DNA of 63,878 bases, filler included, from Porpidia crustulata (GCA_964255105.1; 3 parts of 3 records of this genome joined end to end with filler, not necessarily neighbours in it); one strand, 5' to 3'. Positions 2,549 to 49,124 are shown, counted from the whole stretch's first letter. Made by a program: numbers and translations. The notes: generated by a model not told the origin, from the letters alone.

Positions 2549-2670
2549 TACACGTATTTACGCCTCAGTCGATTACACCCCTCAATCGAACATCGTACCT
2601 AGGGTTAGGGCTTAGTATTTTTTTGCATACGATCACGTGGCAATGTTCGGTTGAGGGGTAAATACTAGTA
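2549..2670. mobile_element. TA-bounded mini-element A with terminal inverted repeats and telomeric core
   Basis: Left arm TACACGTATTTAC...ACCCCTCAATCGAACAT; right arm ATGTTCGGTTGAGGGGTAAATACTAGTA; CTAGGGTTAGGG at 2599-2610. About 47 bp are nearly identical to 26271-26317. Confidence 0.7.
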
Positions 2671-4181
2671 ATTAGCACGTGCGTCATTTACTCGTGTAAA
2701 TAGACACGATGTAAGAACGTTTTCTTCTTTCATACCCCTCATACTTCGTATCAAGTCTCAATCAGTCTGATCTTGAACCTGATTCAAGGGTTAAAAAGAG
2801 TGCCCTTTTACGAGCATAAACAGCTGCAATTAACGACTACCTTGACGACTCTACCACTCCCACTCGACCATAGCGCAAACCACGGCTACTTATCGCAGAA
2901 GATACCGACATTACACTCCAGTGACTTCAAAAACTTACGCATTTCAAGCCCCAGGAGCTCCATACATTTGATACGCATACAGTCCAGCGCGTCTACAAGC
3001 TCAATGAAGACCTTACAGATGCAATATGTGAGGAAGAGCAGGGGCTGACCGATAACCAAGCAAAAAAGCAGCTTAATTAGACTAAGCTAAAATAACGAAT
3101 AACTCCCACTTAGGTCTTATTCAGAAGATTAGAAAGACGTGGCCTTCTATGACAAGTTTCGCCTTGGATTTGGCCTTCAAATCATAATACGTATCAAACG
3201 GAAACACTGACCTAAGTATTGATATAGGCCCAGGAACGTGAGCCGAAAGAAGGCTACATCTATGGATGCAAGAGTAAAGGCACGAGAGGAGGAATACCTT
3301 AGACTTTGCATTGTCTTTGTGGTTATTGGACCCAATTCCTGGAGGATCTTGGTATGCATTGTGTCAACTGAGGTAGGCAAGATGACTATAAAGGTATATA
3401 CTGGGTCTATTATTCCTCAAACTAGAGGATCTCCAAGTGCAATGTTTGATGCTTTGCCAAGACGCAAATTCGGTACATGCAAGTAGGAGTTTGATAGCTT
3501 AGGCAAAGAAACATGGCTATCTCTTCTTACACTACCTAGCCCCTCTCTGGACTTCTCTATTATAGAGTCGACAGCGCATCCTTTGAAGAAACCATTTCAT
3601 TCTAAAACATAACAGAAAAGGCTAGTTTAGCAAGTCATATACGGATTTTTGAGAAGGAAATGAAGCAAACAGCGATTCAATGAATATGTGATAGTTATAC
3701 CGAAAGGTTACGTGAATTTAAGAGAGCTAGAGGGCAACTGACGAAGAGTTATATAGTTATGCACTTTGGTGTTGATGCATGTGTCAACTTCGGCTACTTT
3801 TTTCTCCTCCGAAGAACGGGGAAACACGTGCGACTCTGTGGTGACAGTCATTCAAGGCACGTTTAATGAATCCCTGAATGTTTTCGCTTCGGTCCCCGTG
3901 TCAGCATTTCGGACGTTGGCGGCCAGTGAATTCGGTCAATTCTACTGGTGCTTAGAAGTGCCAATGGTATTCAAGAATGGAGAAGCAGTCAAGGAAAACC
4001 AGGCCAAAGGTCCATAGCGTATAGCCTGCAGCACCACATCTTGAATCTTCAGACATCGAGAGGCTTGGATTAACAACGGAGTTATTAGTTGTCGCGCGTG
4101 GTAAGATCATCACCAAATCTTTCCATCCTTCACTCCATCTCGGCACTCGATCCGAGTGATAAATTCGATTCCTCTCCAGAA

Positions 4182-7100
4182 ATGGGTTCCCAAAGTCTAG
4201 TTGCGGCTGGCGAACCCATTGTGGTAATCGGCTCTGGGTGTCGCTTCCCTGGAGGAGCATCGTCTCCCTCGAAGCTCTGGGAGCTTCTGTCAAAACCTTC
4301 CGATGTCCTGTCCGAAATTCCGTCTACTCGTTTCAACCCCAATAGGTTTTATCATCCAGATGGTGAATACCACGGACGCAGCAACGTTAAACATTCCTAC
4401 CTGCTGGACGAAGACCATAGAGTTTTCGACGCCGACTTCTTCAACGTCTCTGCAAATGAGGCTAGTACAATCGACCCGCAGCAGCGTGTCCTCATGGAGT
4501 GCGTGTATGAGGCCTTGGAAGACGCAGGTCAGCCGATGAATCGTTTGAAAGGCAGTGACACTGCGGTTTATGTGGGGTTGATGTGTGAGGAGTACGGTAA
4601 CCTCCAGTCAAGAGAGCTAAATATGATGCCCACGGTACGTTGAATAGGTGGCAAAAACATGCCATTACTTTTGCGTTTGACCCGTTCCGACCTAGAGCAA
4701 GTCGCAAAATTGTTTGCAAAGCCAGAGCCTCAGCATGATGTAGCCTCGATTTAGAGATATTAATGCAAATGAATACTGACGCAAACTGTAGTACTTTCCA
4801 ACCAGTACCGCGCGCTCCGTGGTCTCTAACCGGATCTCGTACTTCTTTGATTGGCACGGGCCTAGCATGACTATTGATACTGCATGTTCATCCTCACTGG
4901 TGGCCGTTCACCAAGGAGTTCAGGCGCTTCGTTCGGGTACCTCCCAGCTTGCAATTGCTACAGGCACCAACGTGATTCTTGGCCCAGAGCCCTATATTGC
5001 TGAGAGCACATTCCATATGCTGTCTCCTCAAGGGCGGAGCCAAATGTGGGATGCAGGAGCCGACGGATATGGCCGTGGTGATGGCGTTGCCGCTTTGGTG
5101 ATGAAGCGGTTAAGCGATGCCATCGCTGATGGGGACGTCATTGATTATGTTATTCGCGAGACAGGCGTGAACCAGGACGGACGTACTAAAGGCATTACTG
5201 TCCCCAGTGCCGACGCACAGGTTGATTTGATTCAAAAGACGTACGCACGAGCAGGACTAGATCTTTCAACGGTCGCAGGGAGGCCCCAATTCTTTGAGGC
5301 ACATGGTACAGGAACATTGGCGGGCGACCCTGTCGAAGCTGAAGCCATCCACCGGGCAATTGGATCACGAATATCGAGCGGCGATGACCTGTCGAAGCTA
5401 CTAGTCGGCTCTGTTAAATCTATTATCGGCCATACCGAAGGAACTGCAGGGATTGCTGGGCTCATGAAAGCTGGCCTAGCTCTGCACCATAGGAAAATAC
5501 CACCGAATCTGCTTTTCAGAAAGCTCAACCCTGCAATTGAGCCATTTTACAAACATGTCCGAGTCTCCACCAAGTGTGTGGACTGGCCCGAAGTTGCTGC
5601 CGGATAGCCAAGGCGAGCCAGCGTAAACAGCTTTGGCTTTGGAGGGACTAATGCCCATGCCATTGTCGAAAGTTTTGAGAAAGACTGGGCAGACGAGTCG
5701 ACAACGTAGCCGCTGTCATGCCTTGCGCCGTTCACATTTTCCGCCAACTCGAAATCAACTTTGAAGCGATATCTCAAGTCCATAGTCGAGTACTTGGGCC
5801 ACTCCCCTTCGGAGAGTTTGATCAACATTGGATACACACTTCACAGCCGACGCTCAACATTTCCTTTCCGCACTGCCTATTCCAGCACTAGCGTGCAGGA
5901 TCTACGAGAGCGCATCGCCGTGTCGGTGTCTGCGCCTGATTGGGAGTCTGCGCGAGCGTCTGGACACGCTCGCATTCTCGGCATCTTTACCGGCCAGGGT
6001 GCCCAGTGGCCGGGGATGGGTAGGGAGCTTGTTGAAAGTTCCAGTTTTGTTCGAGCATGTCTGGAGCGCCTTGAGCTTGCTCTTTCTGCCCTTCCGCCAG
6101 CAGACCGGCCAACGTGGTCATTGAAAGCCGAGCTTCTGGCTGACAAGAAGCACTCAAAATTACACACGGCCACACTTTCGCAACCATTTTGCACGGCCAT
6201 ACAGATTCTCCTGATCGACTTGCTTCGCGCTGCTGGTATCACCTTTGCTGCCGTAGTTGGCCACAGCTCGAGTGAAATTGCGTGTGCGTACGCTGCCGGC
6301 TTCCTGTCTGCTCGCGACGCCATTGTGATTGCCTATTACCGAGGGCTCCATTCACGTCTCGCCGGCGGACCAACTGGGCAGCCAGGAATGATGATGGCTG
6401 TCGGCACCCGCCTCGAGGACGCCGAAGAGGTATGTGCGTTACCGCAATTCAAAGGCCGTATGTGTGTAGCGGCGTGTAACTCACCGGAGAGCGTGACCCT
6501 CTCGGGAGACGCAGACGCCATCGAAGTGGCAAAAGTAATGTTTGATGATGAGGGAAAGTTTGCGCGTGTGCTGCAGGTTGACAAAGCATATCATTCGCAT
6601 CATATGAAGGCCCCTGGTGATGTATATGCCCGTTCCTTGCAGAAGGTGGCCATCTCTGCTCACACTTCGCAAAGTGATTGTGTATGGTATTCCTCGGTGT
6701 ACGACGGACAGCAGGTCAATGGAAACGTCTCGAAGAGGGCACTCGACGGCCAGTACTGGTGCGACAATATAGAGAGACAAGTCACCTTCTCGGCGGCGGT
6801 CGCGGCGGCGGTGCAGGATTCTGGACTTGCAGTAAACGTAGCACTGGAGATTGGTCCACATGCCGCGCTCAGAGGCCCGGTACAGGACATAATGAAGTAT
6901 GCTGGCAAGGAAGTTTCCGCCTATTCGTCCTGCTTGGTCCGGAATAGAGATGGCCGTGAGTCTTTTACGGAAGCACTCGGTGAGCTTTGGAAGAATGGGG
7001 CTGAAAGCATGCTCGTCTTCGACAGGTTTGAGATGGCGGTGAGCGAAGAGCACACGATTACCCCAAAGCTTGTCAAAGGCCTCCCTTCCTATCAATGGGA

Positions 7101-10100
7101 ACATGAACGCCCGTTCTGGCATGAATCACGGCGATCTAAGGCTCTTCGGACCCGCTCTCGACCAGGCCATCCATTGCTAGGTACTGTGAGTCCGGATTCA
7201 ACGGAGCTGGATCTTGTCTGGCACAATGTTCTTCGCCTAGTCGAGCTGCCATGGCTGAACGGACACCAACTTCAAGGACAGACAGTCTTTCCTGCAGCAG
7301 GCTACGTTGCCCTTGCAATCGAGGCAGCAGCATGGGTTACCGAATCAGGATCTGTGCAATTGATCGAGGTCGACGACCTGGTGATTGGTAAGGCTATTAC
7401 TTTTGATAGCGAGAGAAGCATGGTTGAACTTATGTTCTCACTCACCATCGAGAGCAAGGAGCAGCGCGGTAAAGTAAAAACTCTCATCGTGAGCTTCAGA
7501 GCCCACTCCACAGCCGGGAATGCCGGTGCTGCCAGCTTGAACTCGACTGGTCGCATTAAGGTGTTGTTCGCCGACGAACACCCTGTAGGACCAACCTACG
7601 CTCTACCTCCTCGCGAACCAGGCCTTGAAGGCATGGTGTCTGTTAATGAGGACGACTTCTATTCCGAACTGAGGAAGCTAGGCTACCACCATTCTGGCCC
7701 ATTTCGAGCGCTGCAGACCATGACACGCCAATTCGATCATGGTCGCGGTCGCGTCAGCAAGCCAGAACGTTCAAAGATGCATATATCTGAGCAACAGCTG
7801 CTGGTTCATCCAGGTTTCCTAGACGCAGCGTTCCAGGCTATCTTTCTGGCATACTCGTGGCCGGGCGATGGTCGGCTGTACTCACTTCATGTACCTATCT
7901 CTATCCAGCATATTCGCGTGGATGCCATGCTCTGCCGGTCAAATGACGACAGTGACCTCACCTTTGACTCTGTTTTGGCAGCTGATGGCGGCTCTCTAGA
8001 CTCGGCTGGTATCGTTGGCGACGTTGATATCTTTAGCGCCGACGGGAGCCAGGGGATGATTCAAGTTGAAGGAATACATGTGGTCCCATTTACATCGGCA
8101 ACCGCAGCTCATGATACACAGATGTTCTTTGAAAGCGTCTCTGGCGTGGCGTTTCCGGACGGTGAGCTCGCGGTTAGCGGAAATATAGCGCCAGACGAGG
8201 AGATTGCTATGGGCTGGATTTTGGAGCGCATATCCTATTTCTATCTTCGAAGCCTCGTCGAGGAGATAAGTTTAGAAAAAGAGGAACAAGCGGCATGGCA
8301 TCATCCAAAATTAATGGCGTATGCGCGCCATGTAGTAGAGATGGTTCAGAACGACCAACAGCCCTACGGCAAAAAGGAGTGGAAGCACGATACGGTCGAT
8401 ATACTGCATCACCTGATGCACGAGCACAGTGAGAAGATCGAAGTAAGGCTCATGCGAAGCGTAGGCGAACATTTGTCAGCCAATGTGCGCGGCGAGACCG
8501 TCATTCTTGAGCAAATGATGAAGGATGGTATGCTGGACCATTACTACATCGAATCTCTGGGCTTACGACCGTACACGGCGTTTCTGGCCCAGATCATTGG
8601 GCAGATCACGCACGTCCACCCGCACTTGCACATATTGGAGATAGGTGCTGGTACTGGTGGCGCAACCAAGAGCATTATGCGCAAGATTGATGGTGCGTTT
8701 GACCGCTATACTTTCACCGATATCTCTTCAGGCTTCTTCGAGACGGCAAGAGGCGTGTTCACCGAGCTCACAGGACGCATGACGTTTGAAGTGCTCGATG
8801 CTGAAAAGGATGTGACCGAGCAAGGTTTTGAGGAACAATCATACGACTTGGTTGTCGCCTCGCTTGTCCTGCACGCCACCAAGGACCTTCAGCACACGTT
8901 GATTAATGTTCGTCGCCTTCTTAAGCCTGGAGGTTTTCTGGTTATGCTCGAGGTTACGTCCAACGCCACTATGCGCATGTCATTTACCATGGGCGGCCTG
9001 TCCGGTTGGTGGCTAGGCGCAGATTCAGGGCGGCCGTGGTCGCCGTGTGTGTCGAGTGCACAATGGCATACGTTGCTTCTTGACTCCGGTTTTACAGGCG
9101 TAGAAGCTAGTACTTCGGAACGGGATACCTTCCACGCCCGTTTGCTGTGCTTGTCTCATAGGCTGCCGATGAGCGCATTGATCTCCTCGTTTCCCCTAGC
9201 TTGGAGCCGTCTCCGCTATCCGCGATGGAAGAGGTGATCATTATTACGGGCTCGTCGCTCGAAGGCCACCAAGTCACACGTATTGCTCAGCGTATGCTAC
9301 GGCCACATTGTTCATCGATCCAGACCGTGCACGCACTTGATGAGCTGGCCACGTGGGAGCTACTTACCAGTGCCAGCGTGCTCAATCTGACTGACTGGGA
9401 CGAGCCAGTATTCCAGAATCTGAGCCCATTGTGTTTCAAAGCGCTTAAACCGCTGTTCTCTCGTGCACGCATAGTGGTTTGGGCAACAAAGGGTCGTCAG
9501 CGTGACCAGCCGTACGCCAACATGTCTGTGGGCTTCGGCCGAGCAATGATGATGGAATATCCACATCTTCAGCTGCACTTGGTCGACTTCGAGACGGATG
9601 CCAAGCCATCTGCACAGTTCCTGGTGGATGAGCTGCTCCGCATGTCAGTGCTGGCACGTCTGCCCGACGATCCTGCTGGCCCGCTGTGGAGTCGCGAGAC
9701 CGAAATCATCGTCGACGCCGCTGATCGCTGTTGGGTACCGCGGGTGAAGCCACAGAGCCACTTCAATCATTGTTACAACTCATTGCGCCGCCCAATTCAA
9801 GTCGAGGTCGTTCCTTGGCAGAATGCGTTGCAGCTGTCCGGCTCTCAATTGCGGCACGTGCCGCTCCTGGCCTCGCACTACAGCAGTCTTGCTACCGCCA
9901 AAACTGAAAATGTGCGCATCAAAGTGCTCTACAGTTCTAACACGGCGTTACGAGTATTATCGGGGCCGGCACTGTACCCTTCCATCGGCATCCATGAACT
10001 TACACAGCGCCCTGTTGTTGTACTCGCGGGGAGTATCGCGTCGCTGGTCGAGGTGCGCGAGCGATACTTTGTTCCGTACCCGTATCCCCTTGATGACGGC

Positions 10101-13100
10101 CCTGCTCGTCTAAAAGCCATTGCTGACGATCTACTAGCCTCTCTTATTTGCAGTGAGGTGGATGCTGACGGGTGTGTACTCTTGCTCGAACCTGACGAAG
10201 GTTTCGCATATACTATCCAGGCTGTTGCCTCTGTCAAAGGACTGGGCCTCGCGTGTATAAGCAGCTCGATAAACAAGAGCCCCGCAGGGTTTATACAGAT
10301 CCATTCGCGCGCCAGCGGTCGCGTAATCAAGCAGCTCCTGCCGGACTGTGTCTCACAAATTGTAGATTGCTTCAACAGCATCGGCCAGAGCGACAGCCTG
10401 ACTACGCGTATCCAGGACTGCCTAGGTGGATCGCCGAGGGTAGACAATATAATGTCCTTCCGAGCCCGTGATAGCGGCTCTGTACCTGTTGGAATCTCAC
10501 TGGAGGATGCCGTAGAGTCAGTGAGCAAAACTGAGTTTGGCGTTGCTGTCTTCAGCGCCCAGGACTTCGCTACCAAGCGCCAAAAGTCGGGTGCCATTCT
10601 GGAGTGGACGGTAACAGAGACGGTGCCTTTTTCTCTGTTCCCTTCAGACTCAATTTCGCTACTTCAACCCAACCGCACCTACATTCTTGTAGGCTTGGCT
10701 GGAAATGGTGGGCTTGGTTTGTCTCTTGCCTTGTACTTAATCCGCCAGGGTGCCCGATACATTGTCCTGGCAAGCCGAAACCCGAAGGTGAACGAGAAGC
10801 TGGTTTCTAAATATGCCGCGCAAGGAGTTCGGATTGCAATGATTTCCAAGTGAGTTGCACTGTTGCCGAAAAATGGACGAGTGCTCCGCTAACCATACAA
10901 TGCAGCGATGCCACTGATGAGGTCTCGCTCAGACAAGTGATCGCCGACGTGCGAGCTTCATGGCCTCCCATTGCTGGCGTGGCCAATGGCGCCATGGTCC
11001 TTCACGATACATCTCTCGAAACCATGTCTTATGACCAAATGATGCGTGTGTTGAGCTCCAAGGTCGATAGCACGCGCCTCCTTGACGACATCTTCCACAA
11101 CGATGCTCTGGACTTCTTCATCATGTTTTCTTCTCTTGCAAGTGTCTTTGGCAACAGCGGACAATCCAACTACTCAGCGGCCAACATGTCTATGGTGGGT
11201 GTCGCCGCGCAGCGCCGTCGGCGTAATGTCGCGGCAAGTGTTATTGACATTGGTGCTATCATGGGCACTGGTTACATGGCTCGTGAGGTAAGCAAAGATG
11301 TACTTGCTCAGCTCGTAGGTGCTGGATACCGTAAGATGTCGGAGCGAGATTTCCACGTAGCTTTTGCTAATGCAATCATATCCGGTCGCGTTGGATCAGA
11401 AGAGTTGATCACTGGCCTGCAAGTGGCTGTTCCTGGGGAAATTACTAAGCCAGCTTGGTCTGGCAATGTAAGGTTTGGTCACGTTGTACGTTCTGATAGA
11501 CAAGCAGATGCGGTATCCTTGGATGCCTCATCACTTACGGAATCCGTCCGTAGCCTCTTAGAACGGGCACGCACTCAGGATGACATCGCACGGATATTAC
11601 AAGGTATAGACTTAGACGCACCGCTGTTATTACTGAATTTTATATTACTGACCTTTCATCTTCAGGTGCCATTCTCGACAAACTCCAACATTTGTTGCAG
11701 CTGAGTGCTGAAGTCGCCAACGACGACGCGATTCTCCTTCAGCAGGGCATGGACTCTCTCGGAATAGACTCATTGGTGGCTGTGGAGGTCCGGTCTTGGA
11801 TGCTGCGAGAGATCGACGTCGACATCCCGGTTTTGAAGATCCTGGGGGAAATCTCCGTCCGCGATATCATTGATTTTGCACACGAAAAGCTGCCTGCAGA
11901 GCTGGTGCCGAATTTAGGCCAACCCGGCAGGGCTGATCTACCAACTGTGGGGGCGCTGCGTAAAAAGCCGGTCACTGCACTTGCGAAACCCGGCCCAGTA
12001 CCGGTTTCTGCTAAATTACTCCGTCAAGCTGGAAAGGATGCTCCTTTGCAAAATGACCCCAGCGTTGTTTCCAGTACAGCAGAGCTTATTACGACTCCTA
12101 GCAATGCAGAGTTACTAGGTTCGGATCAAGAGCCTGATGTAGAATCGGGCAACACGTCTATTTCCGTATCTCTGCAAGGCCTCAACTTACCGCCAAAACC
12201 AATGATTCCACCGTCGGCTTGGCCATTCTCCGCTCAGTTAGCATCACCGGTCCAAGAAATTGAGAAGACTGTTCCTATGTCGTGGAGTCAGTCTCGCTTC
12301 TGGGTCATGAATCAGATCGTTCAGGACCTAAGTGCATTCAACGTCAGCTGTCATCTTGAAATCACGGGACAGCTGGATCCGGATAAGTTGGCAAAAGCTG
12401 TCATTGATCTGGGTACAAGACACGAGGCGCTGAGGACCTGCTTCTTTAACGAAGACAGCCAAGAACCTGTACAAGGTGTCTTGAGAACTAGTCCGCTACG
12501 ACTCGAAATCATCGAGCCTTCGGCATCGATCCAGAAGGAATTTGGAGCACTACAGCAGCATTCGTATGATCTTATCAAGGGTGAAACGATGAAAATTTTG
12601 CTTCTCTCCCCTTCTTCATCGCAACATCACCTCTTGGTGGGTTACCATTACATCAACATGGACAGTACGAGTCTGGCGCTGCTGGTGTACGACCTACGCC
12701 GGCTATACGCCGGCGAGAAGCTCTTACCAGCCCGCCTGCAGTATCCGGACTTTACCGTACATCAACTGGAGCAATTCCGCAATGGTTACTGGGATGACCA
12801 ATTAACCTTCTGGCGCAATGAATTATCGGATCTTCCTGATCCTCTACCAATCCTCAATGTCTCCCCAAATACCTGTCGCCTGCGCCCAACCCTCACTACT
12901 TACAACAACAATCACGCTGAAACAAGACTCTCGGAAAAGCTGACCAGACAGGTTCAGGCTACTAGCCGCAAGCTAAAGGCAACGCCCTTTCATGTCTATT
13001 GCACTGTCTTCCAAATACTTCTCGCCCGACTGGCTGCTGTGGATGACATTTGTATTGGATTCGCTGATGCCAATCGCAGCGCACCAGGGGCGATGGAGAG

Positions 13101-16100
13101 CATCGGTAACTTCCTCAACCTGCTGCCACTGCGGCTCTCGATGGCCCTAAGCCGGCCTCTCTCGTCTTTGGTCAAGGAAACTAAGAGCAAAGTTCTGTCG
13201 GCTCTTGCTCATTCTTCGGTTCCCTTTGATGTGATCTTGGACGATGTTGGCGTGCGGCGCAGTCCTACGCAAAGCCCTCCGTTTCAAGCATTTATCGACT
13301 ATCGCCATGTAGATGAAGTTCAACCGTTTGGAAAAGGGCAGCTGAAGGGTAAAGAGTATGCGCTTAGCAAAACTCCGTACGATATCATGTTGGACATTAT
13401 CGATGCCCCAATTGGAGCTGCATATATAAACATGATGACCCAAGAAGACCTGTACACAGCCGAGGAGGCACATTTACTTCTCAGCTGCTACATCAGCTTG
13501 CTGACAGCACTCACTCAAGACACAGGCCTGACTGCAGATGGGGTGAGTATGTTCAATTTCCAGGAGGTGGATCAGGCTCTCAAGCTGGGTCAAGGTATGT
13601 CATAAACCTTGAGTAATCAATCACGCTGCCCAACAATCAAAGTGTCGTTAGCTGATCCGCGGTCATCAAAGGACAAATCATAGAGATCAACAAGGGAAAT
13701 TACCTCAATGAGATCGATGAAATAGCCGCGAGCCAGCCAGACTCAGTTGCGCTGAAGGACGGTAGCGGCAACCAGCTCGACTGGGCACAAATGGTCTCCA
13801 GGTCTTACGCTGTAGCGCAAGCTCTTAAAGAGCTAGACATGGCAGGGTCGGCGTCTTACAACAACCTACGGTCGATTGGCTTGTGTGTATTCTGGGAATT
13901 TGGAGAGCAGGGTGTTCCTACGTTCCTTTAGAGACTACTCAGGGGATAGGCCGACTTAATAAAGTTGTACACGAAGCCCAGCTTGCAGTCATCATCTTCC
14001 ATGATGAAACATTTTTTGAACCTCGCAGAAATTGGATGGACAGAAAGCGCTGCTACAATAAACGCCTCTCGCATACCAGCCAAAATTGTCTCTACCAAGA
14101 ACTATCCAGCGCAGGTTTCTGCGGAAGACGAAGCGATGGTGTTCTATACCAGCGGGTCCACGGGCATCCCAAAGGTATGGCATACCCCACCTCCTCTAAT
14201 AAGCGTACCGAGCTGACCGTAGTGCTACAGGGCATCGCTATCCCGCATCGCGCAGTGTCAAATTGCATCATCAGTTTCCTCCATCGCTGGCCAATGTCGC
14301 CTCAAACAGTTCTGCAGCAAGTACCTCTCAGCTTTGACGTGTCATGGTGGACTGCGCTTCTTGGTCTTGCTACAAAAGGGAAAGTGGTCGTCGCTGTTCA
14401 AGCGGCTCGGAGGGACCCGCAAGCGTTGACGAAGCTCATTATATCAGAAGAGATCACCCTGAAATTCGCCGTCCCTTCAGAGACAATTTCTTGGCTCCAG
14501 GCTGGAGATTTAGACGAGTTGCGAAATTCAAACTGGGTCTGGCATTTCTCCGGCGGCGAGCCATACAGCTTCAATCTCGTACAGCATCTGCAGACTTTAC
14601 GAAAGCGTTCCCTTCGGGCCATCAATGTGTATGGTCCGACAGAGGCGATGATCCCTGCCGCGCACAAGGTGCTTTACGATATGATCTCTGCCGATGACAT
14701 GCCGGTTCCAATCGGTCAAGTCCTACCGAACTACAGTGTCTACGTGGTTGACGAGCAGGATCATCCTGTACCTGCCGTGATTCCAGGTCATTTCGTCTTT
14801 GCTGGCGCCGGAATCGCGAGCGGATACGTCAATGACCCCTCTTCGTCTGCAATGAGATTCCCTATCGACAATCGTGCAAGACCAGACTTCGTTCGCCAAG
14901 GTTGGCGTCATGTCCACCGCAGTGGCGATCATGGCTATCTACGAAAGTCCGATGGTATCTTGGTGCTACAGGCCCGCATAAACAGAGACACGCAAGTGAA
15001 GCTACGGGGCCTCCGCATGGATATGATGGACATTGAAGCAAACTTGATTTCTGTTGGGAAGGGCAAGATATCAGAGGCGGTTGTTCATGTACGGAAACCG
15101 AAGGACGACGATTCGAGCACACACTTTCTTCTGGCGCATGTCGTGCTTACCGAAGAGGCCTTGGCGCTCTATCCCAGTGATGAAGAAAAGGTCGCATTCT
15201 TGGGTCGGGTTGTGATGGAACTTCCGTTGCCGATGTACATGCGGCCAGCCAGAATTGTTCATGTCCAGTCTCTGCCACTCAATCATCACGGCAAGGTGGA
15301 TCGTAAGGTCATTTCTACTTTACCTCTGGGTCAGACTCCTACACAGGATGATTCAATTTTGGAATCAGGCAGAGCCCAAATTAACAACCAGATCAGGATG
15401 AAAGGCCTCTGGCAACAGGTGATAGGCGAGACTATTCGATCGCACCTACTCCAGGCGGATACCGACTTCTTTCTAGTCGGTGGTAATTCACTGTCGCTGA
15501 TCCGGATTCAGCGCGAAATAAAGAAGGAGTATGGTGTTGACGTGCCGCTGGTTCAACTCTTCCAACGAACTACCCTTAGACAGATAACGTCATTGCTAGA
15601 TACGACGGACAGAAGCCAACCAGGGATCCAAGCTGCATACATTGACTGGTCAGAGGAGATCAGATTGAACCCGGATATTGAGAATATATGTGCGCCTGTC
15701 TTAGCTAAGCCAAGGAGCGAGGGTAGTATTGTCGCTCTGACAGGCGCTACTGGCTTCCTCGGACGTGCCCTTCTCCAGCGACTAGTAGACGCGCCACATA
15801 TTTTGAGGGTGTACTGCCTAGCCGTTCGGAATCCCGAGCGCCTTGCCAGTATCTCATCAAAGAAACTCGTCATCTGCCAAGGAGATCTTTCCTATCCGAA
15901 TCTTGGTATGGGTCCAATGGAAGCACAAACTGTGTTCTCCACGACCGATATAGTCATCCATAACGGCGCAGATACCTCCTTCATGAAGTCCTACGCTACC
16001 GTAAAAGGCGTCAATATGACCTCCACAAGAGATATTGCTCGCCTAGCACTCCGACACGGCCACGTAAGTCACCTTCATTATGTTTCGACTGCCGGCATTG

Positions 16101-16693
16101 CGACTCAGCTGGGCCATGACCTTTATAACGAGCCTTTGGGCTCTTTGCCACCTAGTGCGAGTACCGAAGGCTATGTACTTTCTAAGTGGGCTTCCGAGCT
16201 CTTCCTAGAGAACGTTAGCTCTGCCACAGGACTCCGTCTGACAATTCATCGACCAACCGCCATTGTGGGGCCTGAGGCTCCACGATTGGATGTAATGCAT
16301 AACGTCCTACATTTCTCTGAGAAACTTGGCGCCGCCCCACAAATGACGGCAATCGAGGGAACATTCCAATTTGTAGGAGTAGACATTGTAGCTCAAGAAA
16401 TGCTGGCAATGTTGCTAGCTCCACCACAAACACCGCTTGCCTACTACAGGAACCACTGTGGATCGCCCGATGACACAATCAGAGTCAACGACCTTGGTCG
16501 GTACTTGAGCCAAAAGCTCAATGCAGCTGTGATGACACTTCCAGACTCCGAATGGATCAAGTCCGCCGAGACGGCTGGACTCGGGCCTGAGGTCGCGAGT
16601 TATCTACAGGATATCGCCACCACCTATACGGGAGGCCAGAAATGAGTATTCCCAACGATTTGGGATAACGCAAGGCCGAAAATGAAAGTATGA
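4182..16693 (+). pseudogene. Hybrid highly reducing PKS-NRPS (KS-AT-DH-cMT-[ER0]-KR-ACP-C-A-T-R), pseudogenised
   Basis: Domain motifs: KS EPIVVIGSGCRFPGG/DTACSSS/HGTGT; AT GQGAQW/GHSS/AYHSHHM; DH HPLLG...GHQLQGQTVFP; cMT LEIGAGTGG; KR GLAGNGGLG; ACP LGIDSL; C; A YTSGSTGIPKG/NVYGPTE/QVKLRG; T FFLVGGNSL; R LTGATGFLG/YVLSKW. Introns at about 4635-4791, 10850-10906, 11603-11665, 13594-13671 and 14174-14230. In-frame stops at 5605, 5707, 9159 and probably 16643; frameshifts near 9130, 13840 and 14015. Confidence 0.9.
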
Positions 16694-17052
16694 AGGGAGA
16701 GCCTTGACAGAAATAAAAGTCGAGAAACTGGATGGTGCAGCGCAATTGTCAAGTTCTGGCACCGAAGCAAGGAGCTATGATGTTGCAGGCTCTCAGACTC
16801 ATCATGTGGGCAGGAGAGAGCACCAAGCTGTGTTGGAAGGGCGGCCGTCTGTGGGAGTCTTAGGAAGTGGCGATCGAAGAGATCATCCCTGCGCCCTTCC
16901 AGGATACTCGTCACCAAGGATAGCCATCCCGCGAACGGAGCATTGAAACTTGCAAAGAGGGGTTACAAGATCATATGTGTTGGCATACAGCGCTCCATGA
17001 CTTGATATCGTTGGGCGCTAGTTGAAAATTTCCGACTCTATCAGACTGGCCC

Positions 17053-17203
17053 TACTCGTGCAAACCCCCCAAACCTACGCCAAAAAAAAAGTTAATGTTA
17101 TTATAAAATAATTTTAATAANNNNNNNNNNCCGCCTCACATAGGGTTAGGGTTATATCGACTAATTTTGACTAGCGCGGACCGTTGGGGGGTTTGCACGA
17201 GTA
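17053..17203. mobile_element. TA-bounded element C with perfect 20-bp TIR, telomeric core and internal assembly gap
   Basis: TACTCGTGCAAACCCCCCAA (17053-17072) and TTGGGGGGTTTGCACGAGTA (17184-17203) are exact reverse complements. TAGGGTTAGGGTTA at 17141-17154. AT-rich sequence and 10 N lie inside. Confidence 0.75.
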
Positions 17204-18240
17204 CCTAAGGTCGCGTCCACAAGAACTCCAAGACATTGCTTTTGACATTGAATTATCTTTTCACTCTTGTTGTTTCTGCAAGCGCCTAGATGACATGTTG
17301 ATACCAAAACAAATTAAATGAAATCTTGATAATTTTGACATGATCATCAATGTTGGTATACTCAACGGCTCGCCCGCTAGATTAGAGTAACAGTCCAAGG
17401 AAGAATGAGAAGAGATAAGCGTGGTGGGCCGATGATCGCATATAATGAACGAGAATCCAAAGAGGACAAGCGAGTAGGGAGGGAGGCCCTACCGTTCATG
17501 CATGAGGATAGCCACTGACAGTGCAGCCTTGTGCGCATGCGTCCAGCGGGTAGGCCTGAGGGGCACTTTCAGCCCACCTGCAACAGACAGCTTCAGCCTC
17601 ACTGCCTAGAATAGTCAACGGCCAACACCAGTACTGCACAAAAAGAAAGAAGAAAACAGACCGACAAAAGGAAGAAGAAGAAAACAAAAAGAAGCCATGT
17701 GCACCCATGGAGATTGTTTCTCCCCTCATCGCAAAGCCAACTAGAAATGCTAGATCTCTCAAGATAATCCATACGCTAAGAGCAGGCACGTATTGACTCA
17801 CTCGCTGAGTCGTTGACACTGGTCTAAGGTATGCACACAAACAGTTTCTTTAGCTCCATAAGGCTTTGTGAGACTACATATCTTGCTTCTGATATCCTTC
17901 ATCTATCAATTTATCGTTAATTGTTAACACTCCCGGGACTGGCTAGGAGGCAGGGATCTCAATTCATATGAGGTTTATCTTGACAACCTTGGCCAGCATC
18001 TGCCCCTAAATATTATACGTCTGGTCAGCTGAATCCTCAAATCGTTCACAATTTTCAGCGGATTGCAATCAAGATCAGGATTTTTGCTAAATATTCACTT
18101 AGACTTACCCCATAGAACTCATTCTGTTACTTTCCTTCATTCATTATTGGTAGAGTTGGGATGCAAAGAATTACCTAATTTCATTACCAAACACTTCTAA
18201 CACCGTAAACACTTGCCATTTTATCTAGTCGATACTCAAA

Positions 18241-21141
18241 ATGTCGGATGATTCCAGAGTGCGATCAGCTCTCTCTGAGGTGGATGAAAGTTTCCTGGAG
18301 GGGGCACGCAGACTTGAGCAGGACGACTTTGGAACTGCTCTAATCGCATCCACTTGCAATGCCGAGTGGTCTCCAACATCTGATCAAGAACGCCAGACTG
18401 TGAGACGGCAACGAGACGCTTATAACAAGGCAAGAGACGTTCAGGAGAATGCTGAAATGGAGCGAGCTACCCAAGAATCATTAGAATCGCCGTCGTGGGC
18501 CTCGCCGACGCGGAAAACTCACAACTCTGCCCCTCTCATCGAAGAGCGTATCCATGATATGGTCGCGAAACTTGATCACGGTGTGCCCTCGCTTTGTGTT
18601 GCAAATGGGGATACTTGGGTGTTTATAGACCCACCACCGCGGCAAGCGGACCATAATGACGAACGCTACAATATTTACATCCAGCGCTATGAAGAGCCTT
18701 TAGTCGTGCGATCGCAGAATCTTTTGCAGCTTGGCTCATCATTTTTCGAGAAAGAATTCTCCTCGACTAAACAGTACCGATTAATTCGCCGTCGGGGCCT
18801 TGTCGGGAAATTACCGATGGGAATCAAGTTTGTCCTTGACCTTACTCCTCCAATGGAGGGCGAAGACGCTGTGTACTTGACCACCGAACTCTGTTGTCCC
18901 AAAGGAGTGATCGGTTGGTTTCAGTCGAAGAAGCGATGGGGAATATCTAATACGCTTGTCGGAGGCCCAGAGGAATACGCAGACGGCAAATCAGTTAGCA
19001 CATCTACTCTTCCTGACGGTAGTGAGATTCCCCTGCCTCTGGAGTATACGCCATTGAGGCATCGCGCTGCGATCGAGCGAGTCATGGTCGCCATACATGA
19101 TAAGGATCCGCAAATAGACTCCGCGGTAAAACTTTGGACCACTTTCGCTGTGGCAAAGTATTTCGACATTCCAAAGAGTCCACTGACCGATTACATTGTA
19201 CGCTGGCTCCGTGCATATCCTAATTCTTACTTCGTCGAAGTATTACCAGAAGTGAGTCTTAAGATTGCCGACGGTCTCCAATGTGAGCAGCTCTGCCGAG
19301 ATGTATTTGCGATTTTAGTCGGTGAAGAAGCCCTGGGCACCATTAGGAGGTCTATCGAGGGGAAATCTTCCAACTTGTACAGTGTGCATTGCCGTAGAAG
19401 GGACGACTTGCCAGAGGTCTATCAGACTCGTGTCGAGTATGCTAGCAAAGCCCTTCTCGAAAGGATCACAACGCTGTTCGAGGGTCTGACGGATGTTGAG
19501 ATGTCATGGATCGCAGAACTACCAGAATATCAAAAGCTCCTTTCAATCAACCTACCGGATGTCGCAAACTCGGAAACGTTAGCCTCCTTGAAAGCTCACC
19601 TCAAGGCATATGTTCGGGGAGCTATCATGAAGCTTCTATGTTCGAATTTTTTTCAAATACCCAACGCCAAAGATACTGTAATCACGAATGACGATTTGTA
19701 CCCTAAGACAACTTGGACGGAAACGTGGAACACTTTACATCCTCGCGAGCGAACCATGACTCGCTCCTTTTGGCGTGCTCTCCGGCAGCAAGAAATCTAC
19801 CGTGGGGCTTCCAATTTTGATATTGGAGACCACATGATTAATTCTCTCCATAGTCTTGATCCTACTATGACTGCTGATGAGGAGACACTACTACAACAAG
19901 AAGTCTTCCGCAAGGTCTCCAGAATGGAAATTGATGACCTAGGTTTTGAGTTAAACGCTTTATTGTATGCGGACAAAGACCAACATCCAGACCACGAACC
20001 TTTAGCAATCAGAAACGCAGATATACTGGGCAAAACTTCAAGCAACGAGGTTACTGAGCCAGGCAATTTTAATGACTCGACTTTCGCAAATCCGAATTCA
20101 GGATCGGCTTCAGCTCCAAGCCCCAGATGGCGGCGAATTGCACGAGCTATGGATCCAAGCTTCAAAGGCCGTGCTGAGAGTGCGAACGATATCGATGATG
20201 TCAACGCGGCAAGCGGCGCTCTCAAGACCCCCATGGAAGCACGCAAGAAGGGTTCGATTTTACAAGCGCGGCGCTTTTTCCAGCTTCATGCATTCTTGGA
20301 CGAGGCTCAAGCTTATATTAGCGGTCTGTGTGACCGTATGCTTGGGAACGGCGACAATCACAACCCATTTGAACTGGATCTGACCGATACACTCATCTGC
20401 CTCGAGGATACCGAGTGGAAATACCTACCTATCTGGGCGAATGGAAATGATGATGGATCTGGCGGAGTGTACAATGATGAAGTGCCTTTTGCCAATGGCG
20501 GTTTCTCTACGGCAGGACCACACGTACACACGCGCACTAGCAGCACCACGACGTCTAGTGACGGATACGAGGTCATCGGCAGCCAATCCGAAGACAGTAC
20601 ACGGAACACCTCTACCATAGTCAATGATGGTCGCTCTTCTGTGCTCCATCCGTTGAGAACGTATGCAATGAGCGAGAGCGACGAGTCCTGGAATAAACTT
20701 CCTACCGGACCTGGTAGCGATATTAGTGGCCTGGATGCTTTGACTGTCAATGATCATTCATCTCATACTAGCCAGACCTTTTCCGTCTCCGGCGAAGGCT
20801 TGATTGGGTCTGTAGCCGGAGATAACCGTACTGGGGAAGCATTGACGAGGTGGGAAACGGTCCCAATGGAGCATATGGAAACAGAAGCAGACCTACGCCC
20901 TAATTCTCCCACAGATCGCGAACTGGAACAAGAACTCAGCAATGCATTCATGGAAGCAGACGGCGACGACGACGATGATGACGATGATAATGATGACAAC
21001 GATGACATTGAAGTCGACAGCGATGACACCGCTACCGAGCTTGGTGATTTCGTTCCTGGCAACGAAGCTATCGATGATGAGCCAATGGCGGACTATGAAG
21101 CTAAGAGTGAAGACGAGGATGAGGACATGGTGGTCGTCTGA
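18241..21141 (+). CDS. Hypothetical fungal protein, 966 aa, acidic C-terminus
   Basis: Long uninterrupted ORF with globular-looking blocks (KFVLDLTPP.EGEDAV.L.TEL, IDSAVKLWT, EWKYLPIWANGNDDGSGGVY). No family recognised with certainty. Confidence 0.8.
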   Translation: MSDDSRVRSALSEVDESFLEGARRLEQDDFGTALIASTCNAEWSPTSDQERQTVRRQRDAYNKARDVQENAEMERATQESLESPSWASPTRKTHNSAPLIEERIHDMVAKLDHGVPSLCVANGDTWVFIDPPPRQADHNDERYNIYIQRYEEPLVVRSQNLLQLGSSFFEKEFSSTKQYRLIRRRGLVGKLPMGIKFVLDLTPPMEGEDAVYLTTELCCPKGVIGWFQSKKRWGISNTLVGGPEEYADGKSVSTSTLPDGSEIPLPLEYTPLRHRAAIERVMVAIHDKDPQIDSAVKLWTTFAVAKYFDIPKSPLTDYIVRWLRAYPNSYFVEVLPEVSLKIADGLQCEQLCRDVFAILVGEEALGTIRRSIEGKSSNLYSVHCRRRDDLPEVYQTRVEYASKALLERITTLFEGLTDVEMSWIAELPEYQKLLSINLPDVANSETLASLKAHLKAYVRGAIMKLLCSNFFQIPNAKDTVITNDDLYPKTTWTETWNTLHPRERTMTRSFWRALRQQEIYRGASNFDIGDHMINSLHSLDPTMTADEETLLQQEVFRKVSRMEIDDLGFELNALLYADKDQHPDHEPLAIRNADILGKTSSNEVTEPGNFNDSTFANPNSGSASAPSPRWRRIARAMDPSFKGRAESANDIDDVNAASGALKTPMEARKKGSILQARRFFQLHAFLDEAQAYISGLCDRMLGNGDNHNPFELDLTDTLICLEDTEWKYLPIWANGNDDGSGGVYNDEVPFANGGFSTAGPHVHTRTSSTTTSSDGYEVIGSQSEDSTRNTSTIVNDGRSSVLHPLRTYAMSESDESWNKLPTGPGSDISGLDALTVNDHSSHTSQTFSVSGEGLIGSVAGDNRTGEALTRWETVPMEHMETEADLRPNSPTDRELEQELSNAFMEADGDDDDDDDDNDDNDDIEVDSDDTATELGDFVPGNEAIDDEPMADYEAKSEDEDEDMVVV

Positions 21142-21366
21142 GGCGTAAGGCTGGAAGAACAATGGCGTCGAGGATTTGATAAAAGCGCAATAAAAGAGGT
21201 TATTGGGACCGGCGCTTGGAGTGAGATTTCATTAGACAATTCCGTTCGTATGCGACCATAGCTTCTTCAAATTACTGTTCTGCTCTGTCCAAGGTGTTGA
21301 TTATAGATTTTGCCTGTAGGATGATCTAAGACGTAAGATTTCAATGCGCTCTCCTCTACCATTCTA

Positions 21367-21434
21367 TACTCGTTTCCAGCCCTCATCGGACTATTACACC
21401 TAGGGTTAGGGTTATACGTAGTAAGATTCGAGTA
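21367..21434. mobile_element. TA-bounded mini-element D with telomeric core (68 bp)
   Basis: TACTCGTTTCCAGCCCTCAT...CCTAGGGTTAGGGTTATA...TTCGAGTA. Ends are TACTCG and CGAGTA; the left end matches the family's bipartite motif. Confidence 0.6.
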
Positions 21435-21620
21435 CCTGAAAGCCCCGAGGCATCTATCTACCCCTGCACCCCTCTAGCCCTGCTCGCCCTATGAGGCCGA
21501 AGAAATCCATGTACGAACCCATCAAGCACAACAGCCCAACCACCAACACCCACAAGCTCTCCGAAACCCACAATGAGTGCCCACAAAGCCTTCCTCTACA
21601 AACGCGGCACCCTCTACGAC

Positions 21621-38776: not shown

Positions 38777-39446
38777 ATATCGTCTTATGCAAAAGTTGGA
38801 GCCGATTTTGAAAATCTAAAATCTAAAAATTAAAAATTAGAAATTAAATCGCGGGGCAGTTCCCAAAGGCCAAAAGCACTGCTTTTGATACTGCAGCCAC
38901 CACCTGCTTATTTGATTGAATATCACATGTTCAACATCATAATGTGATGCTGTACAGATCATTTGTCCTCAGATTTATCGTTTCATCTTATTTTCGTCAT
39001 CATCAATTCTCTCATCAAGCTTCTCATTAGATCTACTATCATCAGATCTTTAATTAAATTCCTCATCAAGTTTCTCGTTCAGTCTAATATCAAGCTTGGC
39101 AACAGACTTTAGTAGCAGACCTAATTAAAGGCTTAACAGCAGACTCGAGGAAATTGATAGCAGGTCTAATGAAATACTTGACGGGAAAAAAAAGAATTCA
39201 ATGAGAAAGAAGAGATAGAGTGGGAAGGACGAACGCTGACAGCGAGGTGAGAACGTTCAATTTGGGGGGCAAATGATCTGTATAGCATTAAACTATGATG
39301 TTGGGCACATTATATCTAATTAAATAAGTAGATGTGACTGCAGTACCAAAAGCAGTGCTTTTGGCCTTCTGGAACTGCCCCGCGATTCTTTTGGAAGGGC
39401 TTTTTTTATTTGCAAAATCGGCTCCAACTTCTGCGTATGGCGATAT
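38777..39446. mobile_element. ~670-bp foldback/MITE-like element with ~200-bp imperfect inverted arms
   Basis: The left arm ATATCG...AAGTTGGAGCCGATTTTG...ATCGCGGGGCAGTTCC..AAGGCCAAAAGCACTGCTTTTG.TACTGCAG...CAGATCATTTG (38777-38975) is mirrored at ~39260-39446. Differences are mostly transitions. Confidence 0.75.
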
Positions 39447-39906: not shown

Positions 39907-39972
39907 ATGCAACCAATTGCTTCACGAGATGCAGCCAATTGCTTCACGAGATGCAGCTAATTGCTTCACGAG
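39907..39972. repeat. Tandem repeat, 3 x 22 bp (ATGCAGCCAATTGCTTCACGAG)
   Basis: Units start at 39907, 39929 and 39951; the first and third each differ from the middle unit at one position. Confidence 0.9.
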
Positions 39973-43245: not shown

Positions 43246-43345
43246 NNNNNNNNNNNNNNNNNNNNNNNNNNNNNNNNNNNNNNNNNNNNTTAATTAATTA
43301 ANNNNNNNNNNNNNNNNNNNNNNNNNNNNNNNNNNNNNNNNNNNN
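43246..43345. other. Artificial contig-joining spacer (N44-TTAATTAATTAA-N44)
   Basis: Same 100-bp structure as 21621-21720. Confidence 0.95.
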
Positions 43346-46211: not shown

Positions 46212-49051
46212 TTCTAAGACAGTACTCTAGCGGGGACCTGTGTCATCTCATTAACGTCGTACGCATCCCAAACGCGCTGCAAGTCACCGTGGTGGTAGTG
46301 GTGGAGGTGGCCGAGTTCCACACCCACGGACGATTAGGCGCACTTCTCAGATCTTCGGATTCGACAAAGACATGATCCTTGTCCATCGCCCAATCGCGAA
46401 GAATATATACGCCGGCGCGCGCGCCGGATCTGCAGAGGAAGTCCTGCATACTTGGGGAAACGGCAAAGACTGCTTGGTAGCGCGGAAAAACTTGTCATTT
46501 TGAGCGTTTAGGTCTCCTTGAATCTCCTGAAGATACGACCGACATTCCGCCAGAGGAGAATTTCTCATAGGCGCCATGGCCATTTTAATTCGAGCTCTAA
46601 GAGGCCCAAAGCTGCCTCTGCGCGGTCTTTCCAGAAGTTTGTGCCTAATCATCGAGTTTAGCTGACTCAATGAGCCTTTCCTTGAAAGGAGGATTCGACA
46701 AAGTGATCGTAGTGAGGCGTGTCGAGTGTAGTAGAAAAGAGGTTATATGAAAATGAGAAAGTGGAAATATGCGCGCGAATTCCAGAGAGGAAGAATATAG
46801 TCGGGCAAAGGATGAGTTCCTTGCCGTAGAATATTTCCGTTGCTGAAGTCGAAGTCTCATTGTCGACTATGATGAAATGCTCATGACAAGTTTGGCCTGA
46901 GCGTTGCATGATTATTACAACAAACAACATTTGTTATGCTGCCGGCTAAAATTGCTTCAAATATTTTTTGTTGTAGTTGAATGCGGTTCGATTCCACCAG
47001 ATTTTCAATTGCACGACAATCAAAGCCTTGATAGTGTTTAAGCCAACATCATCTGCGCCTTCAGTCATCAATAGCGAAGTAGTCGGATCAGCGTCATCAA
47101 ACAATCTACGAATGAGATCTCGATCTGCTCTGCTCACAGTGCCGTCGTATCATATGGATTTGACGTCGAATCGTTTGATCAGGGCTGCATCGATGATATT
47201 CAGAAATCGAAGAAAGCCGGAGAAGACTATCATGCTCTCATCGAAATAGCATTCTATCAATCATTGATACAGCGTCAGAAAATACTCTGCTCTTGCTGAT
47301 TCGAACATCGTGTCGTCTTCTTTCAGGCCTTTCAGTCATTGCTGCCTCGTTTTATTCGCTTCATCTTCATCTGGATTCCTGAAGTTATCCTCGGCGGGAT
47401 TGAAATCTTCGTCAACCGTCATTTTCTGACAAACTAATGCGGGATGAAGGGAATATTGTAATGCCTTGACAGTTTATTGTGGTTTGTGGGCGAGGGGCAT
47501 CGATTTTGATACCGAGTGGGATGGCTGTCCGCGAGTACTTCTTTTTCCCTCCCTTCTTTGCTGGATATTGTCTCCAGCTGGGGGAGTGGACCCTTCGAGT
47601 TACTTGAACTTTCTTGTTCAAATTAAACATGATTTGATAATTAAACAGTTTTTCCACGAATAATCAGGGTTGAAGGGGCTCCTTAGTCTTGCCATTTGTA
47701 TTTCTCTCGTGCATTTGCTCGCAGACATTGAATTTTGCGAATTGGACTTGGTTTATATAAAGAAATGTAGAAGGTCTCTTATAACCGCAATGAGAATATC
47801 TCTATCAAGTCCAGTGGCCCTTCACTCTCTCCCACCACGTTGAATCTGTCTCCACGTTTTACGAAGTTTCTGATTTCTATCTGATGAGATATTGAATAAG
47901 AAGGTCGGCGGGTTCCGTCTTCAGGGGTTTTTTCATCATGATTAGAATAACGCATTTGCTTTTCCGGGATCTTACAATATCAAACATGCGAATACGATCA
48001 ATATATGCGCAATTTCGAAGAAAGCTGAAGAACCAACGTTATAGTCAGTCATCAGATGAGAGCTTGTGTTCTGCGACTCCAACATGCGATAGGTTTCGAA
48101 AGTCTGTAGTTGCTGTAGTTTTTGGAATCATTTTCTGAGCTATTATCGTAGGACCTCTTGAGATATCCTTCGGTGAGACTAGGGTTAGTAAGATTTCTGC
48201 AATTCGATGTATAACACTCCACGTCTTCTTTTCGGAGAGCCTCGCCGTACAGATCCAGACTTCAAGTCAACACATTACTCTTAGTATGCTGACCTTGGGT
48301 GGGGCTCTAAACGCGCATCAGCAGCCTCCTTACTCTCGTAAACAGCGAAGCCAATACCCAACTGAGCCAGCTCCGCCAAGTCATCCAGTTTCGGAAAGCT
48401 TCTATAATTCCATCTGCGAGATACGGGCGGGGGAACGACAGCGGTGACGACGGAAGACTGCGCATGCGCGTAAGCTAATTATTCGTCATTGAGCCACTGC
48501 CATGTATATACCATGTTTAGAATAGGTTTAAACTAAAGTTGACCAGAATTCGTAAGTTAAATTCTTAATCGGAGAATAACAAGTGAAGACATAACACTGT
48601 CGGAAACGCGTCATCAAGAAATTAAACCCGCATTCAACACGTAAGGAAGAAATAAATATTATATACGAATTGTGTGGAAGTGCTCTGACATGTTCTACTG
48701 ATCTTATGAGTAGCTTGACGGCTCCAGTCGATGTGCCAGGATAAGAGCCTTGGATTATTACACCAACTTTATCTACTGATACAGACTCTTTTAATTTTAG
48801 TTGAGGTGCATTAAAATGGTAATTTAGATGATTCGAGAGACATATGAATTTGGGCGAGGTTGCTGAAACTAGCGTGCTGCACAAACAATAGCAGCTTTCT
48901 CGTAGTTTTCTCGCGATGTTCAGGCGCGGTGATGCAACGGTACAATAGGTGTCGAGGCGCCGAACCTCTTGACGCGGCTGGCCATCCATCGCTGAAGGAT
49001 TGACTGCGCAGGGTCTTCGGTTACGGTCCTTCGCTGCATTCCCCTGTCGCA

Positions 49052-49124
49052 TACTCATTCCCACCCCTCAACGTTCGGCTCTAAAAAATTAGTCGATATA
49101 ACCCTAACCCTAGATAAACGAGTA
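49052..49124 (-). mobile_element. TA-bounded mini-element E with telomeric core (73 bp)
   Basis: Minus strand reads TACTCGTTTATCTAGGGTTAGGGTTATATCGACTAATTTTTTAGAGCCGAACGTTGAGGGGTGGGAATGAGTA. It shares 28 bp (TAGGGTTAGGGTTATATCGACTAATTTT) with element C. Confidence 0.72.

Follow-up and report, generated by a model that had tools for sequence, protein, structure and literature searches.

Short palindromic elements with a telomere-like core in Porpidia crustulata: a probable MITE family of the pogo/Fot1 type

The Trem elements of Paracoccidioides are fungal transposons of the pogo/Fot1 type within the Tc1/mariner superfamily, as are their relatives Tan1, Aft1, Pot2 and Fot1. Trem inserts at TA dinucleotides, which it duplicates, and has inverted repeats that are 42-49 bp long (PMC2836289). 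The inverted repeats of Trem, and also those of Aft1 and Tan1, contain two 17-bp direct repeats, proposed as binding sites for the helix-turn-helix (HTH) domain of Trem transposases, which carry HTH_psq, CENPB and DDE domains (PMC2836289). MADE1, an 80-bp palindromic miniature inverted-repeat transposable element (MITE) of the human mariner Hsmar1, consists of 37-bp inverted repeats around 6 bp (PMC1784062), and in fungi a non-autonomous element is paired with an autonomous one in Vader and Tan1 of Aspergillus niger and in mimp and impala of Fusarium (PMC13728883). Here we describe five short elements, A to E, in a window of 63,878 bases from Porpidia crustulata (GCA_964255105.1; the window is the whole stretch of DNA that was analysed), which are very likely copies of a non-autonomous, Stowaway-like MITE family derived from a pogo/Fot1-type Tc1/mariner transposon, and which share a short core resembling the telomere repeat TTAGGG.

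Both the core and the ends of the elements are far more frequent in the window than expected. The motif TAGGGTTAGG occurs five times (four times on the plus strand and once on the minus strand), and CTAGGGTTAGG, with up to one mismatch, gives seven matches against 0.53 expected, a number that none of 100 shuffles reached; six of the seven fall inside the five elements, B holding two in inverted orientation, and one lies outside, at 48179. The end signal TACTCG-N5-ACCCCTCA, sought with up to three mismatches, gives 18 matches against 3.79 expected (the largest count in a shuffle was 9, and 0 of 100 reached 18), and all ten matches with at most two mismatches lie inside the five elements, the eight three-mismatch matches outside them being chance-like. 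Because the end-only search ignores the telomere motif, it serves as an unbiased check on the core, which is present in 5/5 of the end-defined elements of the window. Furthermore, A and B have 50 nt in common at 94% identity (repeat D3), and the 28 nt from 17141 in C are identical to E at 28 of 28 positions (I9). A sensitive BLAST of the window with all five elements found no further copy, and three-mismatch end matches, for instance those at 4325 (inside a ketosynthase (KS) exon) and 2723, were inspected and dismissed as chance. Two further stretches resemble parts of the elements. At 48179-48195, CTAGGGTTAG is directly followed by TAAGATT, a combination that equals the core and right interior of D minus 12 nt and is either a remnant copy or chance. 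To the right of A, at 2689-2741, TACTCGTGTAAATAG is followed 45 nt on by ACCCCTCA, which may be a degraded neighbouring copy, in an alignment that is not confident.

An intact copy of the family is a near-perfect palindrome of 113-141 nt, in which two arms enclose the core TAGGGTTAGGG. Read inward, an intact arm consists of TA, nine nucleotides (CTCGTATnn), two 17-nt direct repeats (ACCCCTCA..CG..CA.) and usually CGTAC, and the consensus of 13 arms reads TACTCGTat..ACCCCTCA..cG..ca. over the terminus and first repeat. Two in-register 17-nt repeats, alike at 12-14 of 17 positions, are present in 7 of 16 arms, and an offset of 17 is the best self-match in six of the 16 and the joint best in two more. 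The distance from terminus to half-site is constant, with 4-5 variable bases between them, because the inner half-site ACCCCTCA starts the first 17-nt repeat. At the two ends of an element, the variable spacer bases change together, as inverted repeats predict; in gap-free alignment, arms of different elements agree at 27-39 of 45 positions and arms of the same element at 43-45 of 45. When three relatives from metagenome contigs (L001, L002 and L006, described below) are counted with those of the window, TA is found at both ends in seven of eight copies, B being the exception, and the flanks show no longer direct repeat. The terminal inverted repeats match at 43/45 in L001 and at 45/45 in L006, and D and E retain merely the terminal 6-11 nt on one side. 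The elements, at 68-151 nt, are non-coding.

Element A (2549-2670, plus strand) is 122 nt long and has its core, TAGGGTTAGGG, at 2600-2610. Its left arm is made up of TA, CACGTATTT and two 17-nt direct repeats that are alike at 12 of 17 positions, and its right arm of a single repeat and the terminus CTAGTA, with one point change from the consensus in each of the two termini; as a single strand it folds with a z of -4.8. Element B (26259-26395, plus strand) is a hairpin with 48-nt arms (26270-26317 and 26335-26382; inverted repeat I7) that are 88% complementary, and its fold z is -11.2. Its core, CTAGGGTTAGG, lies at 26307-26317 and a second, inverted copy, CTAGGGTAAGG, at 26335-26345, both within the arms. 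The right arm of B is complete, with 9 nt and two 17-nt repeats (13/17 alike), and has TG as its flank; at the left end, ~11 terminal nt are missing or have been substituted, and the boundary on that side is uncertain, being set at 26259 here and at 26266 in an earlier note on this DNA. Element C (17053-17203, plus strand) has perfect 20-nt terminal inverted repeats, TACTCGTGCAAACCCCCCAA (20/20 nt; I14), one 17-nt repeat per arm and a core at 17141-17151. Its interior holds an AT-rich stretch and a 10-N assembly gap at 17121-17130, and the true length of C is therefore not fixed.

The remaining two elements are one-armed deletion derivatives. Element D (21367-21434, plus strand; 68 nt) keeps its left terminus and one repeat, with the core at 21401-21411; its right end has shrunk to CGAGTA, with the right inner half-site gone, TA stands on both sides, and it has no fold (z +0.9). 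Element E (49052-49124, minus strand; 73 nt) carries its core on the minus strand at 49102-49112 and keeps one terminus with its repeat (TACTCATTCCCACCCCTCAA on the plus strand); the other end amounts to ~11 nt and has lost the left inner half-site, TA again stands on both sides, and there is no fold (z +0.6). The last 15 nt of E overlap the stop of a helicase-like frame, 49110-49769 on the minus strand, which holds a Helicase_C domain and takes its final codons and stop from the element. Neither upstream nor downstream is it continued by another long frame, and it may represent part of a gene or a gene cut short when the element inserted. Given the point changes in the termini of A, the lost terminus of B and the one-armed deletions of D and E, the window copies, which are old and damaged, are probably immobile relics. 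Copies under 400 bp should escape repeat-induced point mutation.

The earlier note had described these five elements as TA-bounded, with a bipartite end signal of fixed spacing, on three separate contigs. They are found where it placed them, every end string that it quoted reads as written, and the artificial N44-TTAATTAATTAA-N44 spacers at 21621-21720 and 43246-43345, by which the window joins its three contigs, confirm the separation. The fixed length of the spacer is likewise real, as the constant distance from the terminus to the first 17-nt repeat, but its sequence is not freely variable, for its first base is almost always T in the 13-arm consensus. The description as TA-bounded holds for A, C, D and E but not for B, with its missing left terminus and its TG, and the bipartite ends fail on the deleted sides of D and E.

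Public sequencing data bear on the copy number of the family through the Logan contigs of run X1, the sole public run found to hold the region and probably the source sample; the evidence from this run consists of assembled contigs only, which drop rare variants. A total of 44 contigs were placed on 2000-21620, nine at 99% identity or more, representing the locus itself, and 35 at 90-99%. Contigs break at the elements (2583-2592, 17070, 17141-17192 and 21367), and 32 of the 44 match only in part, mostly at elements, leaving 36 loose ends whose flanks are unlike. In four contigs the match begins precisely at 21367, which is the T of the TA at the left end of D. Because short-read contigs break at the elements with such partial fits, the family must have many copies, and it is a dispersed repeat with sharp boundaries in the host genome. 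For each of A, C and D, a contig runs across the junctions with the flanking sequence, and a joint that skips an element was found in none of the contigs, which offer no sign of structural heterogeneity but cannot reveal rare variants. Telomere tails were absent from the six loose ends listed of the 36.

Further members of the family were found among metagenome contigs with the pattern TAGGGTTAGG-N{30,60}-TGRGGGGT-N5-YGAGT, which demands neither the left ends nor the left 5-nt spacing. The scan returned seven loci, three of which, L001, L002 and L006, are intact, TA-flanked, palindromic members. The left half of each starts TA-CTCGTAT(TC/AT)-ACCCCTCA and mirrors the right half (3/3), and as single-stranded DNA they fold with z of -15.9 (L001), -10.3 (L002) and -21.0 (L006). 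L006 forms a perfect 56-bp stem closed by an 18-nt loop, TTGATAGGGTTAGGGTTG, which holds the core. L001 and L006 share an accession prefix. A frame beside L002 has nine relatives, all fungal, the one named match being Periconia at 31%, and the frames flanking the three members have no Pfam match. The other four loci, L003, L004, L005 and L007, are chance matches to the pattern with no inverted repeat; L004, L005 and L007 show one AT-rich stretch in three metagenome records, identical over 270 bases around each match apart from one base in L007. A collection of prokaryote genomes, searched for mis-binned fungal contigs with the arm, core and arm pattern and with a pattern of the ends only, gave 0 matches, as did viral contigs with the ends-only pattern.

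Compared to the described systems, the arms of these elements come closest in plan to those of Trem. The order of TA, 9 nt, 17 nt and 17 nt matches the ends of Trem, Tan1 and Aft1, and the elements are therefore placed with the pogo/Fot1 type. Trem has the same flanking TA and inverted repeats of ~45 nt that comprise a short terminus and two 17-nt direct repeats, and the Trem consensuses of supplement S9 open with 9 + 17 + 17 nt in the same register as the elements (PMC2836289). A motif resembling CAC(C/T)GTAC stands just inside the repeats at the right ends of Trem and in L001, L006, A and B. Trem elements are 1.85-2.3 kb long and encode a transposase, whereas those described here are non-coding and a small fraction of that length, and no telomere-like core is printed beside the Trem ends (PMC2836289). 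The terminal bases are CTCGTAT here and ACGTAAT in Trem, and the Trem consensuses as printed contain no TACTCG, CGAGTA or CCCCTCA, with TGAGGGG occurring once, in the body of an element and not at an end. Trem and the present elements thus appear to have a related design and distantly similar sequence, and not to belong to the same family.

In overall shape, the nearest described element is human MADE1, likewise an almost perfect palindrome. As in the present elements, two transposon inverted repeats of the same superfamily surround a very short core and form a stable hairpin as a single strand (PMC1784062). The arms of MADE1 are 37 bp long and its 6-bp core is described without a noted motif, whereas here arms of ~50 nt contain 17-nt direct repeats and the core of 11-18 nt is a conserved telomere-like sequence. 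Vader and mimp offer a likeness of another kind, as fungal, non-autonomous, TA-flanked elements that are moved in trans by a transposase of the Tc1/mariner/pogo type. Vader, at ~440 bp, and mimp, at ~200 bp, are larger than the present elements and are not palindromes over their whole length, and their partners are known; to our knowledge, neither has a telomere-like core.

From the structure of the elements, that is, from the copy number, sharp boundaries, flanking TA and shared end plan observed here, we infer an enzyme, a duplication of TA and mobility. A transposase acting in trans, with DNA-binding domains of the HTH_psq/CENP-B type and a DDE domain as in Trem, Tan1 and Fot1, would bind the 17-nt repeats, cut at the CTCG termini and reinsert the element at a TA, which would be duplicated. 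The first repeat would then always lie equally far from the cut, which would account for the fixed spacer. By analogy with MADE1, the palindromes most likely arose through miniaturisation or fold-back of one end of the parent element.

Several observations limit the assignment to a pogo/Fot1-type MITE. A transposase or recombinase domain was not found in the frames that were scanned (42 of 80 frames of at least 110 aa, one frame of 67 aa and five frames flanking L001, L002 and L006), and neither an empty site nor an insertion polymorphism was seen among the contigs of the one run. The two repeats of TremB match those of L002 at 11/17 and 12/17, with ..CTCA...GGCCA(C) in common, which favours the assignment, in a likeness that was judged by eye over 34-43 nt and is the best of several pairs (PMC2836289), and the terminal 9 nt of TremB fit the elements only with a one-base offset, at 6/8. 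The search pattern itself required L001, L002 and L006 to have the core, TGRGGGGT and YGAGT, and these three give no independent measure of how well the core is conserved. Within the window, the core is nevertheless conserved, with 10/10 positions identical in 5/5 copies. Subfamilies A/B and C/D/E agree at 57% over the terminal 28 nt and at 84% over the 15 best-kept positions of the ends; a core identity of 10/10 would arise by chance with a probability of 0.004 if the former rate applied and of 0.18 if the latter did. Conservation of the core is thus roughly equal to that of the recognition ends and not significantly better (P ~0.18).

The core itself amounts to 1.7-2.2 units of the telomere repeat, the longest run inside the elements being 11-13 nt. 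It is set 35-89 nt in from the left terminus and, in all two-armed copies, occupies the centre; it is never terminal. The string TTAGGGTTAGGG has 0 occurrences in the window, and no array of TTAGGG stands at any contig end or beside the elements. Together with the short and central core, these absences rule out a conventional interstitial array and make a telomere seed unlikely. Our best guess is that the core is a putative accessory protein-binding site that aids transposition and not a seed for telomere addition. One could go further and suppose that the core is a working module, in which TAGGGTTAGGG, presented at the tip of a hairpin or cruciform or in duplex form, recruits a telomere-repeat-binding protein, a proposal that we regard as tentative and rather improbable; this protein might come from the host, as a Myb-type factor, or be one domain of the pogo-type transposase belonging to the element. 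If this were true, transposition could depend on the core, and the recognition signal would then have three parts, the terminus, the 17-nt repeats and the core; alternatively, the family could plant telobox-like sites with regulatory or chromatin effects near genes, such as those of the biosynthetic cluster in the window. In either case, a cut-and-paste transposon would be using the telomere repeat in a way not described before.

Mobile elements that carry telomere repeats are not without precedent, TBE1 of Oxytricha being one. In TBE1, as in Penelope-like elements, the repeats are terminal, whereas here the core is central and below 2.2 units, and the termini are TACTCG/CGAGTA. Telomere-associated Penelope-like retroelements carry the telomere repeat of their host, and a study of Zymoseptoria, in the part available, ties TTAGGG solely to these; these retroelements are subtelomeric, code for enzymes of their own and use the repeats to prime reverse transcription at the ends of chromosomes (PMC4522978). 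The present elements, unlike the Penelope-like ones, lie in ordinary genic contigs.

Other explanations of the same features have to be set against that of a pogo/Fot1-type MITE. The closest to it keeps the MITE and gives its core a function for the host, as a putative site for a TTAGGG-binding Myb-type protein of the Tbf1/Teb1/Tay1 class, so that the family would spread telobox-like or chromatin sites near genes. The core is the best-conserved interior block, identical throughout the window copies compared to 57% in the terminal 28 nt, and occupies the centre of the palindrome or its loop in intact copies, and CTAGGGTTA presumably fits the sequence recognised in double-stranded telomere repeats, but such conservation equally fits a role in transposition or recent common descent. 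Three copies (A, C and D) lie in or just after a polyketide synthase-nonribosomal peptide synthetase (PKS-NRPS)/Diels-Alderase cluster on contig 1 and four of the five follow the stop of a long frame at a distance of 0-408 nt, as a site acting near genes might, but five copies are too few for testing enrichment there. Interstitial telomere repeats are known to induce H3K27 methylation in Neurospora, where the shortest array with "some" methylation was (TTAGGG)8 (PMC5752202), against the two units or so of the core, and a host function of this kind is unlikely. Even less probable, and very unlikely on balance, is a reading in which the inverted-repeat element comes from a different superfamily, or in which TA is part of the inverted repeat and arises without target duplication. 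TACTCG/CGAGTA is itself an inverted pair, so that TA could belong to the repeat; no empty site was seen, nor was a transposase in the frames scanned, and the terminal CTCG departs from the ACGT printed for the Trem ends (PMC2836289). On the other side, arms of ~45 nt built as 9 + 17 + 17 nt beside a flanking TA are the plan of the pogo/Fot1 type, the repeats are 11-12/17 alike to those of TremB by eye, and the flanks of seven copies show no direct repeat longer than TA.

The stability of the palindromes raises the question of whether they are structured-RNA genes, for instance precursors of hairpin small RNAs, since B, L001, L002 and L006 fold with z of -10 to -21, and there is a precedent in MADE1 palindromes that turned into microRNA genes in primates (PMC1784062). 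Against this, a search of the window and of L001, L002 and L006 with Rfam 15 at the gathering score matched none of the elements and only a tRNA gene at 23283-23355 on the plus strand; D and E do not fold, yet keep termini and core; the search of public runs returned no RNA run; and conservation falls on the termini and the 17-nt repeats, as sites for a transposase predict, so that such genes are highly improbable. The earlier note had left a choice between an undescribed MITE and signals for programmed genome rearrangement. Its MITE is supported and can be refined to a derivative of a pogo/Fot1-type Tc1/mariner transposon by the 9 + 17 + 17 end plan and flanking TA. Programmed excision, chromosome breakage or de novo telomere addition would account for conserved ends of fixed geometry, for TA borders like those of sequences eliminated in ciliates and for a telomere-like motif, but the motif is internal and short and has no array beside it or at the contig ends, the junctions of A, C and D are covered by contigs with no joint that skips the element, D and E have decayed to one-armed relics, and the same design is found in other fungal contigs as plain palindromic insertions. 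Programmed DNA elimination is not known to us from filamentous ascomycetes, although no search was made for it. Excision may occur in a minority of nuclei, a rare variant that contigs cannot show, but as an explanation of the family, rearrangement signals and a telomere seed are barely credible.

The host of the elements is indicated by an Inp1-like frame on contig 2, whose named relatives, at ~50-55% identity, are almost all lichen-forming Lecanoromycetes (other relatives reach 74%), and which suggests a filamentous ascomycete near that group, probably a lichen mycobiont; the G+C content of the window is 47.9%. On contig 1, the secondary-metabolite cluster extends over 1160-16645, with elements A and C bracketing the synthase. 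A Diels-Alderase-like frame (1160-2344) lies on the same strand as the hybrid PKS-NRPS, which comprises KS (4089-5607), acyltransferase/dehydratase/methyltransferase (5710-9237), ketoreductase (9162-11704), carrier and condensation (11584-13605) and adenylation, carrier and reductase (13829-16645) portions. Inside the KS exon, 180 nt at 4859-5040, with ends GC..AG, are missing from one contig of run X1 (depth 11.5), which could reflect a paralogue, a variant or an effect of assembly.

Repeats of other kinds are also present in the window. A second, unrelated inverted-repeat element of ~670 bp occupies 38777-39446 and has long imperfect inverted repeats, in the arm pairs 38777-38821/39402-39446, 38847-38900/39334-39387 and 38901-38968/39267-39334, with ends ATATCG.../...CGATAT. 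The start of contig 3 (43346-43787) is a tandem repeat with a period of ~216 bp (repeat families D2, D4 and D14), and shorter tandem units are found at 39907-39972 (three of 22 nt) and at 6-118 (three of 27 nt).

In the literature searched, which took in few subscription journals and no transposon database, there was no description of a fungal MITE with a telomere-like core. A survey of transposons in Umbilicaria reports four MITE families with a median of 521 bp, and telomeres go unmentioned in the portion of it available (PMC8773270). The family is thus probably uncatalogued, and its unusual trait is the conserved telomere-like core. As a MITE family defined by end plan, repeat structure and relatives, it enlarges the short catalogue of mobile DNA known from lichen-type fungi, and it explains why short-read contigs of the host genome break where the elements stand. 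It also calls for caution, because short interstitial TTAGGG motifs in fungal assemblies can be the cores of transposons and not relics of telomeres. Should the core prove to be needed for transposition, or to bind a telomere protein, the family would provide a new link between telomere-repeat recognition and DNA transposons.

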